A stretch of 36,369 nucleotides of DNA, taken from positions 1-36,369 of the forward strand of contig JAUNTR010000002.1 in NCBI GenBank assembly GCA_030538575.1, written 5' to 3'. Source of the stretch: Cruoricaptor ignavus (GTDB lineage: Bacteria; Bacteroidota; Bacteroidia; Flavobacteriales; Weeksellaceae). Below are positions 19,257-36,219 of this stretch, piece by piece (positions within the stretch are counted from its first letter, which is position 1; every line of letters starts with the position of its first letter). The notes beneath the pieces are model-generated. The model searched no databases and was not told the DNA's origin. It saw only the letters and a list, made by a program, of their open reading frames with translations. The position numbers and the translations under genes were made by a program.

Positions 19257-20381
19257 ATGAAATTAAACCTCTTAGAAGGCTTTAGAGGATATATGGCACT
19301 TTGGGTTGTCTTTTATCACGCTTCAGGATTTTTACCACAATTGGGGACCGGAAATCCTGTATATAGATTTTTATTTGACGGAATTTTACCTGTAGTTGGG
19401 TTCATTATTCTCAGCGGTTTTGTTACGCATATTCTTCTTGATAAAAAAGAAGATTTTAAAACCTATATCTACAGAAGAGCCCTGCGACTTTTTCCCATAT
19501 TCTTAGCAACATTCTTTGTTTCGCTACTTATGTTGGACTTTGCCTATTCGGTATTGGAGCAATTGCCTTTTGACAACAAAAAAATTGAAATGAGAAAAGA
19601 ACTGATTATGATGTATTATGAATCTAATCGGTTTCTAAACATTCTATCTCATCTTACACTTACGCACGGATTATTCCCTAATAACATTTTCCCATTTACT
19701 TATACCATTATGGGACAATCTTGGAGTTTAACTTTGGAGTGGCAATTCTATCTTTTTATTCCTATTGTATATAAATTATTATCAAAAGAAGAGAGAGATA
19801 AGGGCTGGAAAATAAACTTAATACTACTTATAAGTTTTTTGGTTATGGTTTTTTGGTCTTTTGGTAATATGCCCCAAAATTCTTTTTTACCTTTCCTTGT
19901 ACATTATTTCCTTGTAGGATTTTTCAGTTATTCGTTTTATAAACAATATAGAGATTATGGCGACAAAAAACTTTTTTATTTCCTTATTCTTGTCGCTATT
20001 GGCTATTTCTTTTTATACCGAGTGAATGTAAGTATTATCATCCTTTTATTTATGATGATTTTATATTTCCAGATCAACCAGAACCGCATAATCAATAAAA
20101 TTTTTGGTAGTAAAGTTCCGTTATTCTTAGGCAAAATATCATATTCTGTCTATTGTACACATATGATTGTTTTATATATTATAGGGGGGGGGATCAACTA
20201 TCTGAAAATCAGTGATTTAACTCATGGAAAGTATTTGTATATAGTTTTATTCTTAGCATCATCTATGATTTTCACTATAATATTATCACATTTCACTTAT
20301 AAATATATAGAGGAATATTTTATAAAAATTGGAAAAAATTTAAACCGTAGTCACAATAAATCACCATCTGCAAATGTTTAA
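19257..20381 (+). CDS. Acyltransferase family 3 (membrane O-acyltransferase); contains in-frame G9 tract
   Basis: 374-aa polytopic ORF starting MKLNLLEGFRGYMALWVVFYHA, the typical acyltransferase_3 N-terminus. Confidence 0.8.
   Translation: MKLNLLEGFRGYMALWVVFYHASGFLPQLGTGNPVYRFLFDGILPVVGFIILSGFVTHILLDKKEDFKTYIYRRALRLFPIFLATFFVSLLMLDFAYSVLEQLPFDNKKIEMRKELIMMYYESNRFLNILSHLTLTHGLFPNNIFPFTYTIMGQSWSLTLEWQFYLFIPIVYKLLSKEERDKGWKINLILLISFLVMVFWSFGNMPQNSFLPFLVHYFLVGFFSYSFYKQYRDYGDKKLFYFLILVAIGYFFLYRVNVSIIILLFMMILYFQINQNRIINKIFGSKVPLFLGKISYSVYCTHMIVLYIIGGGINYLKISDLTHGKYLYIVLFLASSMIFTIILSHFTYKYIEEYFIKIGKNLNRSHNKSPSANV
20184..20192 (+). repeat. Homopolymeric G9 tract inside the acyltransferase CDS (in frame, ON)
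   Basis: Read directly: ata ggggggggg atc encodes I-GGG-I at about residue 310 of 374. Confidence 0.95.
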
Positions 20382-21255
20382 ATCAAGATTAGAAAAAGTA
20401 TTATTTATAAAAAAACTAAAAAATTTGCCCAAAGAAATCTTTGGAGGCAAATACATTTTGGTAACATCTTCTATAGATCCATTTTTCAAAAATTGGGGAG
20501 ACGACATCAGCACCGTTATTGCACAACTCATTAACCCTTCTGTAAGAATAATACCATCCAAATACTCTTTTAATATTTTTAGAAAGAAAGAGTTTTTATC
20601 GGTAGGAAGCATCATCACTTGGCTTACAAAACCCAACACTATTATTTGGGGAAGCGGTGTACAATTTCCTGAAGACAACATTATATACAAGGGTAAAGAA
20701 ATAAAACCTCTGAAAGTATTGGCAGTAAGAGGTCCACTTACAAGAGACTACTTGCTAAAGAAAAACATTGATTGTCCGGAAATATATGGCGATCCAGCAT
20801 TGCTTTTTCCTAAATATTACAAGCCCAATGTAGAGAAAAAATACAAACTTGGGATTATTCCTCACTTTAAGGATAAAAATTCCAAAGTAGTAAAACAAAT
20901 CCTCGAAGACGAGAACATTCACTTTATTGACATTCAAAACGTTACCGACTGGAGAACTTTTATCAACGAGGTTGCAAGTTGCGAAGCAGTACTATCCAGT
21001 TCTCTTCACGGAATCATCGTTTGCGATTCTTACAATGTACCCAACGCTTGGGTAGAATTTGACAGAAAAAACCTAAAAAGGTTTACATTCAATGATTATT
21101 TCATGTCTGTAAATAAAGGTATGCAAGAACCCAAAAATTTACCAGAAACACCAACACTAGAGCAATTGATAAAACTAACGGAAGATTGGAAAGCCCCTGA
21201 AATAGATTTATCTCCGCTATTATCGGTTTGTCCTTTTATAAAAAACACAAAATAA
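20374..21255 (+). CDS. Polysaccharide pyruvyl transferase family protein
   Basis: 293-aa ORF with NWGDDISTVI, GSGV, VRGPLTRDYL and SSSLHGIIVCDSYNVPNAWV motifs typical of PS_pyruv_trans. The ATG overlaps the upstream stop (atgtttaa). Confidence 0.8.
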   Translation: MFKSRLEKVLFIKKLKNLPKEIFGGKYILVTSSIDPFFKNWGDDISTVIAQLINPSVRIIPSKYSFNIFRKKEFLSVGSIITWLTKPNTIIWGSGVQFPEDNIIYKGKEIKPLKVLAVRGPLTRDYLLKKNIDCPEIYGDPALLFPKYYKPNVEKKYKLGIIPHFKDKNSKVVKQILEDENIHFIDIQNVTDWRTFINEVASCEAVLSSSLHGIIVCDSYNVPNAWVEFDRKNLKRFTFNDYFMSVNKGMQEPKNLPETPTLEQLIKLTEDWKAPEIDLSPLLSVCPFIKNTK

Positions 21256-22043
21256 TGATTCCTAAAAAAATACACTACTGTTGGTTCGGAGGAAATCCAA
21301 AACCCGAGTCGTTCCAAATTTGCCTCGAAAGTTGGAAGAAATATCTGCCCGACTACGAAATTATAGAATGGAACGAATCCAATTTCGATATCCAATGTTG
21401 CACGTACGTGAAACTCGCTGCTGAAAATAAGAAATGGGCATTTGTTTCAGATTATGCCAGAGCCTTAGCCTTGTTCCAACATGGCGGAATTTATATGGAC
21501 ATCGATGTGGAAGTGAAACACAATTTAGACGAGTTTCTGCATCATCGTGCCTTTTCGGGCTTCGAGATTGTTGGCTCTCCTTTCACTGCACTTTGGGCAA
21601 CAGAAGCAGGACATCCTTGGCCACAGAAAGTGCTGGATTTTTACCACGAAAAAACAGATTTCGACCTTACTACCAACACCGTTTTCGTTTCCGAATTATT
21701 GAAAAACGAATACAAAGTTGATAGCCAAAAAGATGAATACCAAGAATTGGCAGATGGCATTGCGATTTATCCTTCCTCTTATTTTTGTTTGGATTTACCA
21801 AAAAATTACGCTGCCCACCATTTTGTGGGAACTTGGCACGAAAGAGATACGCCCAATCCATTCAAAGATTTTGTACACACGTATTTCTATTTGGAGCAAT
21901 TGTCGAAAAATCCAGGCGGAATGAAAGAGGTACACAACACCATTTTCAACCAAAAAATGATTTCCGCAGATGAAGTTCTTGCCCGTTTTCCACTGAGAAT
22001 GATTGTAAACCATTTGATAAAAAGACTGAAAAGTAAATTTTAA
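21255..22043 (+). CDS. Glycosyltransferase, GT32-like (Gly_transf_sug, DXD)
   Basis: ORF 21228..22043. Likely start is the ATG at 21255 in a TAATG overlap with the upstream stop. IPKKIHYCWFGG and DYARALALFQHGGIYMDIDVE motifs present. Confidence 0.8.
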   Translation: MIPKKIHYCWFGGNPKPESFQICLESWKKYLPDYEIIEWNESNFDIQCCTYVKLAAENKKWAFVSDYARALALFQHGGIYMDIDVEVKHNLDEFLHHRAFSGFEIVGSPFTALWATEAGHPWPQKVLDFYHEKTDFDLTTNTVFVSELLKNEYKVDSQKDEYQELADGIAIYPSSYFCLDLPKNYAAHHFVGTWHERDTPNPFKDFVHTYFYLEQLSKNPGGMKEVHNTIFNQKMISADEVLARFPLRMIVNHLIKRLKSKF

Positions 22044-34448: not shown

Positions 34449-35283
34449 TACTATCTATTATTACTCCAGTTTACAACACTATGCCTAATCTAATAAAAGA
34501 GTGCTTAGTAAGTATTGAAGCTGCCAAAATAAACTATCCCTATGAAGTTATTTTAATAAATGACGGAAGTACAAATGAAGAGGTGAATAGTTTTTTAAAC
34601 AATTATAAAGCGGAAAATACAACAGTTATTTTTAAAGAAAGTAATACAGGTCTCTCCGATGCACGAAATGTGGGAATAGAAAAAGCAAAAGGAAAGTTTA
34701 TACTTTGTTTAGATTCTGACGATGTATTATTACCCGAAATAAATAATGCTATAAAGTTTTTATTGAAAAACAAAAAATATGATATTGTATATTGTGATAC
34801 ACAATTTTTTGGCGATAACAACACCCTTCGCAAAAGAGGTGATTTTTCAAAATTCAAAATGCAATACCTTTATAACTTCATTACCGCTACAGCCCTTTAC
34901 AGGAAGGATATATCTGGAAATGGGGGGGGTACAGTACGGAAATGAAAACCAATGAGGATTGGGATTTTTGGGCGAAAATGGCAAGTGCAGGATTTTGCTT
35001 CAAATATCTACCAAAGCCATTTTTCAAATATAGAAAAATAATGAATGGGCAATCCTTATCCCAAAGAACCCGTAACGAAACTGAATTTTATGCCACAAAA
35101 ATAAAATCACAATTCAACCCACACAAAGAAATTACAATCCCTGAAATCAATAAATATATTCTCAATAATTTTAAAGATAATAAAAAATATATTTTCAAGC
35201 TTTTACTTATTATTTTATTTCCAAGGATATTTAATTTTTTCAAGAAAGCCAAGTTATTTAAAAATGATATTATTATAGAGTAA
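34445..35283 (+). pseudogene. Glycosyltransferase family 2 split by a frameshift at a G8 tract (ORFs 34445..34945 and 34942..35283)
   Basis: N-terminal part ILSIITPVYNT...ILINDGSTNEEV...LDSDD. One extra G fuses the frames into 279 aa (..DISGNGGGYSTEMKTNEDWDFWAKM..), restoring the GT2-typical EDWDFW segment. Confidence 0.8.
34922..34929 (+). repeat. Homopolymeric G8 tract (frame-breaking, OFF)
   Basis: Read directly: aat gggggggg tac. Confidence 0.95.
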
Positions 35284-35285
35284 AA

Positions 35286-36219
35286 ATGAACAAGCAGACA
35301 CTTTCCATTACAATACCAACATATAATCGCCCTGAGATATTAGAAAAAACAATACTTTCTTTTATAGATGAGAGCTTATTGTATGATATTAATGTCTATA
35401 TATCTGATGACAGCACAAATAATCTTACCGAAAATCTAATCTTAAAATTACAAAAAACCTACCCTAAATTTAAAATCCACTATCACAAAAACCCGATCAA
35501 TTTAGGGCACGATAAAAATTGTATCAAAGCTTTATCTCTTAGCTCTCAAGACTACATTTGGTATTTGGGTGACTCTTGTTCTATAAATAGGGGGGGTACG
35601 AAAAATTTTGGAAATAATCAATACCAATTCAGTAGATTTTATCAGTTGTACTTCATTTAGCCGAAAGAATATATCTATTAACTCACAAATATACAGCAAT
35701 GGTGATTCATTATTAAATGATTTAGGTTGGCATCTTACAATGACAGGCATTACGATATATAAAAGAAAGTCCTTATTATTAGAGCATTTCAACACAGCTT
35801 TATATCCAAATTTCCCACAGTTTGCCCTTATTTTTTCAACTTTTAATAATAAAAATGTTAAACTATATTGGTTAAATGATAGATTAATTTTCGGAAGCGG
35901 GAAAAAGAAAAGCTATTGGTTAGATAATTTTATGAATGTATTTATAGATGATTTTAGAAAGACTATAAACAATCTCCCCCAAAATTTCAATACAGAAACA
36001 GTAGATAGAGTTATCCGAACCCACAGTGTAAATACAGGAATTTTGAGATACTACAAATTCATAAATTTAAGAATAGAAAATAAATGGAATTACAAACTTT
36101 TAAAATCAAGATTATCAGATATTAAAAAATATTCTGATTTGAATATTTTCATACTAATTTCATTGACATTAATTCCACCAAAACTTTTAAATTTTTTATA
36201 CAAAATAAAGACTAAATGA
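35286..36219 (+). pseudogene. Glycosyltransferase family 2 split by a frameshift at a G7 tract (ORFs 35286..35660 and 35608..36219)
   Basis: N-terminal part LSITIPTYNRPEILEKTILSF...YISDDSTNN. Frame 1 is open from 35587. Loss of one G (G6) or gain of two (G9) fuses the frames into about 310 aa (..SINRGVRKILEIINTNSVDF..). Confidence 0.75.
35590..35596 (+). repeat. Homopolymeric G7 tract (frame-breaking, OFF)
   Basis: Read directly: aata ggggggg tacg. Confidence 0.95.

Follow-up and report, generated by a model that had tools for sequence, protein, structure and literature searches.

The stretch of DNA examined here, called the window throughout, comprises the whole 36,369 bp of contig JAUNTR010000002.1 and is AT-rich, with a guanine-plus-cytosine (GC) content of 34.5%. 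Its downstream part carries an array of about 19 glycan-modifying genes that runs to the end of the contig, and five of these genes contain uninterrupted runs of 7 to 12 guanines (poly-G tracts) within their coding sequences (Table 1). One of the five genes encodes an O-acyltransferase, and the others encode glycosyltransferases (GTs): a GT-D-like enzyme, a GT4 enzyme, and two GT2 enzymes, which we term GT2a and GT2b.

The array encodes two acyltransferases of family PF01757, a pyruvyl transferase, wecB, a short epimerase, a hexapeptide acetyltransferase, and transferases of the GT32-like, GT-D-like, GT4, and GT2 types. The genes are packed tightly or overlap, an operon-like arrangement. The region between positions 23178 and 32445 is syntenic with a locus of Vaginella massiliensis, with amino acid identities of 56 to 76%, and the GT4 gene that bears the longest tract is missing from that locus. 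Upstream of the transferase genes lies an ATP-binding cassette (ABC) exporter. The matches of this exporter to the NCBIfam models of MsbA, HepA, and PglK all fell under the curated cutoffs, and its closest homologues were found in Riemerella anatipestifer (73% identity), V. massiliensis (71%), and R. columbina (68%).

Protein similarity places the source organism in the Weeksellaceae (Flavobacteriales, Bacteroidota). The housekeeping genes of the window (infB, nusA, rimP, ugd, and those for enolase, citrate synthase, and a SusC/SusD pair) encode proteins with 80 to 93% identity to proteins of Chryseobacterium and Bergeyella. The ugd product is 85 to 89% identical to other Weeksellaceae ugd products, the closest (89%) coming from a metagenome-assembled genome (MAG) of Bergeyella zoohelcum.

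TABLE 1 Poly-G tracts, tract-bearing genes, and other features of the glycan region
Feature	Length	Position	Strand	Remarks
Poly-G tract 1	G9	20184-20192	+	Codons 310-312 (GGG GGG GGG) of the PF01757 acyltransferase gene
Poly-G tract 2	G8	26099-26106	+	Around codons 197-199 of the GT-D-like gene
Poly-G tract 3	G12	27437-27448	+	Codons 319-322 (encoding GGGG) of the GT4 gene
Poly-G tract 4	G8	34922-34929	+	Codons 160-162 of the GT2a gene
Poly-G tract 5	G7	35590-35596	+	Around codons 102-104 of the GT2b gene
O-acyltransferase, PF01757, OafA/YrhL type	374 aa	19257..20381	+	Pfam E = 5.7e-27; in frame (ON)
GT-D-like glycosyltransferase	328 aa with G9	25510..26495	+	Frameshifted at tract (OFF)
GT4 glycosyltransferase	383 aa from TTG; 369 aa from ATG at 26525	26483..27634	+	PF00534; in frame
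GT2 glycosyltransferase GT2a	279 aa with G9	34445..35283	+	Frameshifted at tract (OFF)
GT2 glycosyltransferase GT2b	310 aa with G6; 311 aa with G9	35286..36219	+	Frameshifted at tract (OFF)
Glycan-modifying array	~19 genes	19257..36369 (contig end)	+ except one gene	From open reading frames and Pfam
MsbA/HepA/PglK-like fused ABC exporter	596 aa	17438..19228	+	PF00664 + PF00005; first gene of array
ugd (UDP-glucose 6-dehydrogenase)		16060..17370	+	NCBIfam nucleotide-sugar dehydrogenase match; head of glycan region, conserved in relatives

Enrichment of poly-G tracts in the glycan locus

In this contig, to which the census of tracts applies, the five tracts were the only runs of guanine or cytosine longer than six nucleotides (nt). 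Each lay inside an open reading frame (ORF), with guanine on the coding strand. The window contained no cytosine run of six or more nt, and its sole further guanine run of at least this length was a G6 at position 6281. Guanine runs of one to six nt numbered 3610, 924, 125, 16, 2, and 1, respectively. Beyond this point the spectrum broke sharply, with one run of 7 nt, two of 8 nt, one of 9 nt, and one of 12 nt.

A first-order composition model predicted 0.45 runs of at least 7 nt and 0.0002 runs of at least 12 nt for the window. As an empirical background, we used 89 related loci with a combined length of 1.76 Mb, namely, 80 Weeksellaceae ugd loci, 5 Riemerella loci, and 4 loci of an uncultured relative. 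They contained 42 G/C runs of 6 nt, 11 of 7 nt, 2 of 8 nt, and none of 9 nt or more. Based on these frequencies, 0.13 runs of at least 7 nt were expected in the 17.1-kb glycan part of the window, compared with the 5 observed (Poisson P = 2e-7). For runs of at least 8 nt, the corresponding values were 0.019 and 4 (P = 6e-9). Outside the tracts, GGG accounted for only 10 to 12% of the glycine codons. The five tracts are far beyond what chance would produce.

A first-pass annotation of this DNA had read the five tracts as slipped-strand switches of a phase-variable glycan locus. Its descriptive claims proved accurate: the coordinates and lengths of all five tracts were correct; Pfam matches and ORFs confirmed their placement in one acyltransferase gene and four glycosyltransferase genes; no other long run was present; and the glycine codons of this AT-rich sequence were mostly other than GGG.

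Reading frames and tract length

The sequenced population was captured with the acyltransferase gene ON, the GT-D-like gene OFF, the GT4 gene ON or in frame, and the GT2a and GT2b genes OFF. This is the division into two intact genes and three genes broken at their tracts that the first-pass annotation had reported. Its further claim, that each broken gene sits one step from full length, held as well, with G9 restoring the frames of GT-D and GT2a and G6 restoring that of GT2b.

Changing the length of the tract in silico toggled all five genes between full-length and truncated products. The acyltransferase was truncated at residue 315 or 319 of its 374 amino acids (aa) when the tract was set to G8 or G10, and GT4 was truncated at residue 310 or 324 of 369 with G11 or G13. 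In the OFF frames, a stop codon followed 3 to 20 codons past the tract. The same length series showed that G6 also returns GT-D and GT2a to frame.

The fragments of the broken genes were free of secondary stop codons and other lesions, and a changed tract length was by itself enough to restore each of them. With G9, the GT-D-like protein aligned end to end with an intact 333-aa ORF of Cloacibacterium (38% identity, E = 1e-60). It was likewise colinear with its orthologue in Vaginella (324 aa, 60% identity) and with 80 homologues from metagenomes (36 to 65%). In GT2a, restoration extended the Pfam GT2 alignments across the tract, from residues 5 to 139 before to residues 5 to 204, and brought the ED-x-D-x-W motif into frame. 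The C-terminal fragment of GT2b alone matched residues ~108 to 305 of its ~310-aa homologues. The G9-restored protein gave a gap-free alignment to 10 homologues, and the G6 product was one residue shorter than the family. Judged by these alignments, each of the three broken ORF pairs represents one gene that is interrupted precisely at its tract.

The OFF alleles might nonetheless yield some full-length protein through slippage of RNA polymerase or ribosomal frameshifting at the tract, in which case the tracts would tune dosage. The OFF frames need just +1 or -1 nt, and in other bacteria it is established that transcription can slip on long homopolymers. However, documented productive slippage is mostly on A/T runs of at least 9 nt, and the two in-frame tracts would be left unexplained. 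Neither a slippery heptamer nor a stimulatory structure was noticed, although no search aimed at them was made. Moreover, such recoding is compatible with slippage at the DNA level and does not exclude it. We give recoding only a slim chance, the lowest of the explanations weighed here.

Tracts in comparison with homologous proteins

None of the five sites was occupied in the homologues as it is in the window. The acyltransferase tract falls in a variable transmembrane stretch, where 12 homologues (26 to 33% identity) carry hydrophobic, mostly nonglycine residues. In GT-D, the tract lies within an insertion ("..NDRGG.."), and all 80 of the 80 metagenomic homologues, like the Cloacibacterium and Vaginella proteins, lack two to five residues there. 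The GT4 tract coincides with the conserved GG loop that follows the EX7E motif. The family has GG[V/I] at this loop, three residues, as opposed to GGGG in the window; G12 is thus one codon over the family length, which G9 would equal. In-frame status is not proof of activity for GT4, because four glycines stand where the family has GG[V/I].

The GT2a tract is placed on the GG[Y/F] motif of GT2 enzymes. At this motif, 30 Weeksellaceae homologues use mixed codons (GGA GGG, GGC GGT) or encode residues other than glycine, and their longest guanine stretch at the site is 4 nt or shorter. At the GT2b site, the homologues have x-G-x (KPGA, KNGA, KPGG).

The proteins do not require the tracts, since the homologues show mixed glycine codons, nonglycine residues, or a gap at these sites. 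From these comparisons, the tracts are derived, lineage-specific recodings or insertions, and none of them is demanded by the protein. Interrupted glycine codons in relatives had been named in the first-pass annotation as an argument against phase variation. Such codons were indeed seen in distant homologues; the conclusion drawn from them did not stand, because they indicate that the tract evolved, and would count against switching only in orthologues from the same species.

Sequencing artefact and variation in tract length

Homopolymers of 8 to 12 guanines are error prone on all sequencing platforms. The tracts could therefore be real and their called lengths wrong, with all five genes intact and the lengths fixed. 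We compared the window with the Logan assembly of run SRR24915824, which contains contigs of 1.4 to 4 kb that match three stretches of the window at 100% identity. The small size and high contig numbers of these sequences suggest a low-coverage metagenome, and one contig breaks at a tract; both observations favor miscalled lengths. Against them, this assembly reproduces the G9, the G8 at 26099, the G12, and the G7 exactly, so that four of the five lengths agree between two assemblies. The contig that breaks, SRR24915824_8071 (L083), starts at position 34922, the first guanine of the GT2a tract; at the five further contig ends that we examined, the sequence is ordinary. A start at this position is as expected of a read-level length branch in a de Bruijn graph (G8 versus G9 or longer) and is an ambiguous hint of such a branch.

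Relatives of the source organism provided a negative control. Three complete R. anatipestifer genomes, CP084354-56 (L178-L180), differed from QXHT01000005 (L177), a draft of the same strain type, by 0 or 1 substitution and 10 to 13 indels per 21.8 kb. Nearly all of the indels were in A/T runs of 5 to 8 nt; one fell in a G6 run and two in T2 contexts. The genes split by the indels were housekeeping as well as glycan genes, thrE-like and sod included. We rejected the split genes of these assemblies as cases of phase variation and attribute them to assembly errors at A/T homopolymers. They show that artefactual frameshifts do occur in this family, and the G7/G8 difference in an R. anatipestifer PF00884 gene (described below) is perhaps another.

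The window shows no such pattern. It contains 148 A/T runs of at least 6 nt, none of them linked to a split gene, and the lengths of the other glycan genes match those of their orthologues in Vaginella and Riemerella. Homopolymer miscalling of a generic kind is unlikely, because the 148 A/T runs break no gene, whereas the error-prone R. anatipestifer assemblies err almost wholly in A/T runs. The miscalling that the first-pass annotation had offered as a refutation thus finds little in its favor, with A/T-run frameshifts absent and the Logan assembly in agreement on four of five lengths; to exclude miscalled lengths fully would take the reads. Because tracts of 7 to 12 guanines in ORFs are prone to slippage even if miscalled, an error of this kind would alter only the ON/OFF readout. 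On balance, we consider it very unlikely that the called lengths are artefacts and that all five genes are intact.

Few sequences are available for comparing tract lengths directly. Clusters of the tract-bearing proteins at 90% identity had one or two members, from the window and SRR24915824. The nearest homologue of GT4 among 5.8 billion proteins had 39% identity, and the nearest relative of the acyltransferase had 34%. A search of genome contigs with the GT4 protein returned no relative, and exact look-up of the window proteins encoded at 16060-17370, 33516-34448, and 32449-33510 found none on record.

Glycan loci of related Weeksellaceae

Serovar-specific polysaccharide clusters have been described in R. 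anatipestifer (PMC10787497). The glycan loci that follow the ABC exporter in R. anatipestifer and Vaginella resemble the window in their homologous ABC exporters (68 to 73% identity, including that of R. columbina), and in Vaginella the transferases are partly syntenic as well. They differ from it in having runs of only G6 to G7, at other positions, with none of 8 nt or more within the locus, and in the absence of the GT4 gene from Vaginella. In R. anatipestifer, these were G6 runs and a G7 at an unrelated position in an acyltransferase gene whose product is 23% identical to that of the window. The loci of the uncultured relative contained no long tracts.

The Vaginella GT-D orthologue has a G7 run on the conserved HLGGV motif (L093:16879 and L094:17905), a site other than that of the window tract, and two assemblies agree on the length of the run. 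In both of them, the wecB orthologue of this species is fragmented (128 + 112 aa; L093:11814-12493), and the L094 locus also carries an insertion of the IS1595 family.

About 9 kb upstream of the ABC exporter, R. anatipestifer has a gene of the PF00884 family (sulfatase or phosphoethanolamine transferase) with the run AAATG(7)TAGT on its coding strand (L085-L088:~331). The run is G7 and in frame in three genomes. In the complete genome CP041029.1, it is G8, and the gene is split into ORFs of 188 and 330 aa. The difference could be true variation or a homopolymer error of long-read sequencing.

A minus-strand GT2 gene of R. anatipestifer (L085:17320-18330), the orthologue of window positions 23871-24890, is intact at 336 aa in L087 and L084. 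In other genomes it is split, and a repeat-driven switch was rejected as the cause, the lesions being a CAG-to-TAG change (L086 and L088) and an 11-bp deletion (L085). The loss of this GT2 is ordinary pseudogenization in a serotype-type locus.

The tracts of the window might likewise reflect decay. They would then be hypermutable runs tolerated in dispensable genes under mutational bias, with the frameshifts marking pseudogenization of an eroding locus and no switch under selection. Such a process would be in keeping with the OFF state of three of the five tract-bearing genes and with the ordinary pseudogenes in the glycan loci of relatives (R. anatipestifer GT2 and Vaginella wecB). It accords poorly with the position of the lesions, all three of which are at G tracts, with none elsewhere in the ~19 genes. 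The fragments are otherwise free of lesions, and one guanine in or out restores proteins colinear with their homologues. Furthermore, five such tracts in 17 kb would be hard to reach by drift when 1.76 Mb from relatives contains no run of 9 nt or more, and the sites at which the tracts arose, through insertion or recoding, are different in every homologue. Decay without a selected switch is therefore unlikely in our judgment.

Analogous loci in metagenomes

A metagenome scan for GT-D homologues yielded several low-GC glycan loci with two to five G/C runs of 7 to 9 nt (L153, L165, L166, and L167), most of them in acyl- or acetyltransferase genes. Locus L153 (34% GC) has five, G7, C8, C8, G8, and G9, at positions 3321, 4574, 6768, 10430, and 12522, and four of these runs are in genes for acyl- or acetyltransferases. 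The G8 site is shared with L165 (run at 15257) and L167 (runs at 3161 and 10553), and the frame is broken at this site in all three loci. Locus L166 (43% GC) has a G9 in a PF01757 acyltransferase gene, a G9 in a hexapeptide acetyltransferase gene, and a G8 in a GT4 gene, at positions 6009, 13677, and 18692. The GT-D proteins of L166 and L153 share 85% identity.

Two further loci, L158 (ERZ780208 NODE_894, 9016-9040) and L160 (ERZ860264 NODE_628, 14094-14120), carry one and the same PF01757 acyltransferase gene, with flanks that are 99.3 to 99.6% identical. The tract is G9 in L160, where the gene is intact (321 aa), and G8 in L158, where the frame shifts after about codon 41. The 90% identity cluster of this acyltransferase contains members of 321, 320, 266, and 238 aa from many samples. 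To judge from the two alleles, the tract is naturally polymorphic between ON and OFF lengths, in a glycan locus that contains GT-D and comes from another organism, probably one of the Bacteroidota. By analogy, it offers proof of principle from that organism that tracts of this kind vary in nature in genes comparable to those of the window.

The metagenomic loci, L153, L160, L165, L166, and L167 among them, probably belong to the Bacteroidales. Locus L166 begins with a match to an UpxY-like antiterminator (E = 3e-17, under the curated cutoff), and Shine-Dalgarno motifs are almost wholly missing from these metagenomic loci, as they are from known Bacteroidota loci.

Proposed slipped-strand switching of a surface-glycan locus

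The tracts of the window are intragenic, over-represented, able to toggle the reading frame, not required by the proteins, and placed in surface-glycan gene classes. Every sequence-level feature of a contingency locus that could be checked was present, in support of the reading proposed in the first-pass annotation. We consider it likely that the five tracts act as slipped-strand mutational switches and form homopolymeric contingency loci.

The mechanism is drawn from what is established for homopolymeric tracts in general. As the DNA is replicated, either the nascent or the template strand would mispair within the run, so that one guanine is gained or lost. With the run inside an ORF, this change would move the gene between its full-length and truncated products. 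Tracts of this kind would be hypermutable, and the changes in length would be both heritable and reversible. The genes switched in this way would be those for one O-acyltransferase, the GT-D-like enzyme, GT4, and both GT2 enzymes of a surface-glycan locus with an ABC exporter at its head. A clonal population would keep generating cells with differing glycan decorations, up to 2^5 genotypes, and the benefit would lie under pressure from phages, antibodies, lectins, or predators.

The 32 expression states proposed in the first-pass annotation stand as an upper bound. The five switches might not act independently, because premature termination in overlapping or tightly packed genes may be polar and because the enzymes share one pathway.

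Several observations weigh against switching of this kind. The OFF state of three of the five genes is also compatible with the decay of a dispensable locus. Seven guanines are near the lower limit for a useful rate of switching, and the G7 of GT2b needs either the loss of one guanine, which leaves the protein a residue short of its family, or the gain of two, which gives the family length. The G12 that sets GT4 ON may impair the enzyme through the extra glycine in a conserved loop. Tracts of at least 9 nt are absent from the Riemerella, Vaginella, Chryseobacterium, and uncultured-relative loci, and there is hence no precedent at the level of the family. The tract-bearing genes were found in one sample only among ~15 billion proteins, with no variation in length, and exact look-up of the six predicted ON proteins found none on record. 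Finally, the contig break at 34922 is equally explicable by Illumina errors or by a drop in coverage at the G run.

Relation to known phase-variable systems

O-acyltransferases and glycosyltransferases are classic targets of repeat-mediated phase variation (PMC8355987, PMC2193922, PMC5084427). The likeness to Campylobacter jejuni, the Neisseria lgt genes, and the Helicobacter fut genes that had been claimed for the window holds for the architecture; the mechanism was shown in those systems, and we infer it here. In C. jejuni, poly-G contingency genes are found in lipooligosaccharide (LOS), capsule, and flagellar-glycosylation loci. Like the window, this bacterium has several intragenic G/C homopolymers of ~8 to 12 nt clustered in glycan transferase genes of an AT-rich genome (PMC8355987, PMC3068675), the frame sets the ON or OFF state, and the surface varies combinatorially. 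Unlike the source organism, C. jejuni belongs to the Campylobacterota and is without MutS/MutL-type mismatch repair. Its switching has been demonstrated by experiment, and its tracts are unrelated in sequence to those described here.

In Neisseria, lgtA, lgtC, lgtD, lgtG, and pgtA share with the window poly-G on the coding strand, encoding glycine in glycosyltransferase genes, with several switches per locus; the outcome of switching is alternative LOS or pilin glycoforms (PMC2193922, PMC5084427). These genes differ in belonging to Betaproteobacteria and to other enzyme families, and within-strain variation of their tracts is documented.

The fut genes of Helicobacter are futA, futB, and futC. 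These genes and the tracts of H. canadensis (PMC2823697) are comparable to the window as homopolymer-controlled glycosyltransferase and surface genes of a low-GC, host-adapted bacterium. The H. pylori fut genes, which belong to another phylum, differ in combining poly-C with C-terminal heptad repeats and translational frameshifting.

The oafA gene of Haemophilus influenzae encodes a phase-variable O-acetyltransferase. Together with neuO of Escherichia coli K1, it parallels the acyltransferase of the window as a membrane-bound or hexapeptide glycan-decorating enzyme that is switched by a repeat in or near the ORF. The repeats of neuO and oafA are tetra- or heptanucleotides, as opposed to the mononucleotide G9. 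The E. coli K1 case is cited in a study of Bacteroides fragilis (PMC3090145).

The capsules of B. fragilis and other Bacteroidales come from the same phylum as the window, and they too show within-strain variation of surface polysaccharide. That variation, however, arises through site-specific inversion of promoters flanked by inverted repeats and controls whole loci (PMC3090145), whereas the candidate switches of the window are intragenic and act gene by gene. In B. fragilis, slippage was merely speculated upon, on the basis of a C4/C5 difference in an acetyltransferase gene (PMC3090145).

A full-text literature search returned no report of phase variation by repeats or poly-G in Weeksellaceae or Flavobacteriia, an absence that is not proof of novelty. 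The mechanism is textbook knowledge; the taxon and the number of switches per locus were not described in the literature searched. We regard it as quite possible, although short of probable, that Bacteroidota use intragenic poly-G/C slippage in O-acyl- or acetyltransferase and glycosyltransferase genes as a second layer of glycan phase variation, one that works on single genes, beside invertible promoters. The organisms concerned would be this Weeksellaceae lineage, of host-associated type, and probably gut Bacteroidales (three to five tracts in L153 and L166, and the G8/G9 pair of L158 and L160). The window, with five tracts and up to 32 genotypes, would be the first clear multiswitch example.

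If the tracts do switch, a member of the Weeksellaceae (the family of Riemerella, Bergeyella, Elizabethkingia, and Chryseobacterium) would vary its surface glycan by bet-hedging of the Campylobacter or Neisseria type, in a phylum in which glycan phase variation has so far been ascribed to promoter inversion. For annotation, it would mean that a "pseudogene" in a glycan locus of a Bacteroidota MAG may be a gene in its OFF phase. There would also be a bearing on serotyping and vaccine design for Weeksellaceae pathogens and on studies of phage-host interaction and immune evasion. The multitract loci of probable gut Bacteroidales hint that the phenomenon is wider in the phylum, and a survey seems feasible in existing metagenomes. 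The principle is not new; the value of the observation would lie in taxonomic breadth and in how many switches there are.

Sequence features flanking the glycan array

Between rimP and ugd, at positions 15877-15903 and 16012-16041, the window has two divergent promoter-like motifs of the Bacteroidota TAnnTTTG type, TATCTTTG on the minus strand and TAATTTTG on the plus strand, which form a weak inverted pair of 27 nt (70%). An invertible promoter at the head of the locus was rejected: this pair, the best found, is merely 70% complementary and coincides with the divergent motifs. No recombinase domain was present in any ORF of the 36-kb contig. A scan of the window for sigma-70 promoters and terminators, which is ill suited to Bacteroidota, performed no better than on shuffled sequences, and Rfam gave no match in the window or in six related loci.

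Directly 3' of ugd, and 25 nt before the start of the exporter gene, lies a perfect inverted repeat (17373-17413) with arms of 16 bp and a loop of 9 nt, and TTTTT comes after it. It looks like a terminator that divides ugd from the glycan array. Positions 6281-6322 contain the G6 run, at the 3' end of an ORF of 135 aa for which Pfam gave no match. After the run comes a hairpin, CCCCCTC-TGC-GAGGGGG, that stands between convergent genes and probably acts as a terminator in both directions.

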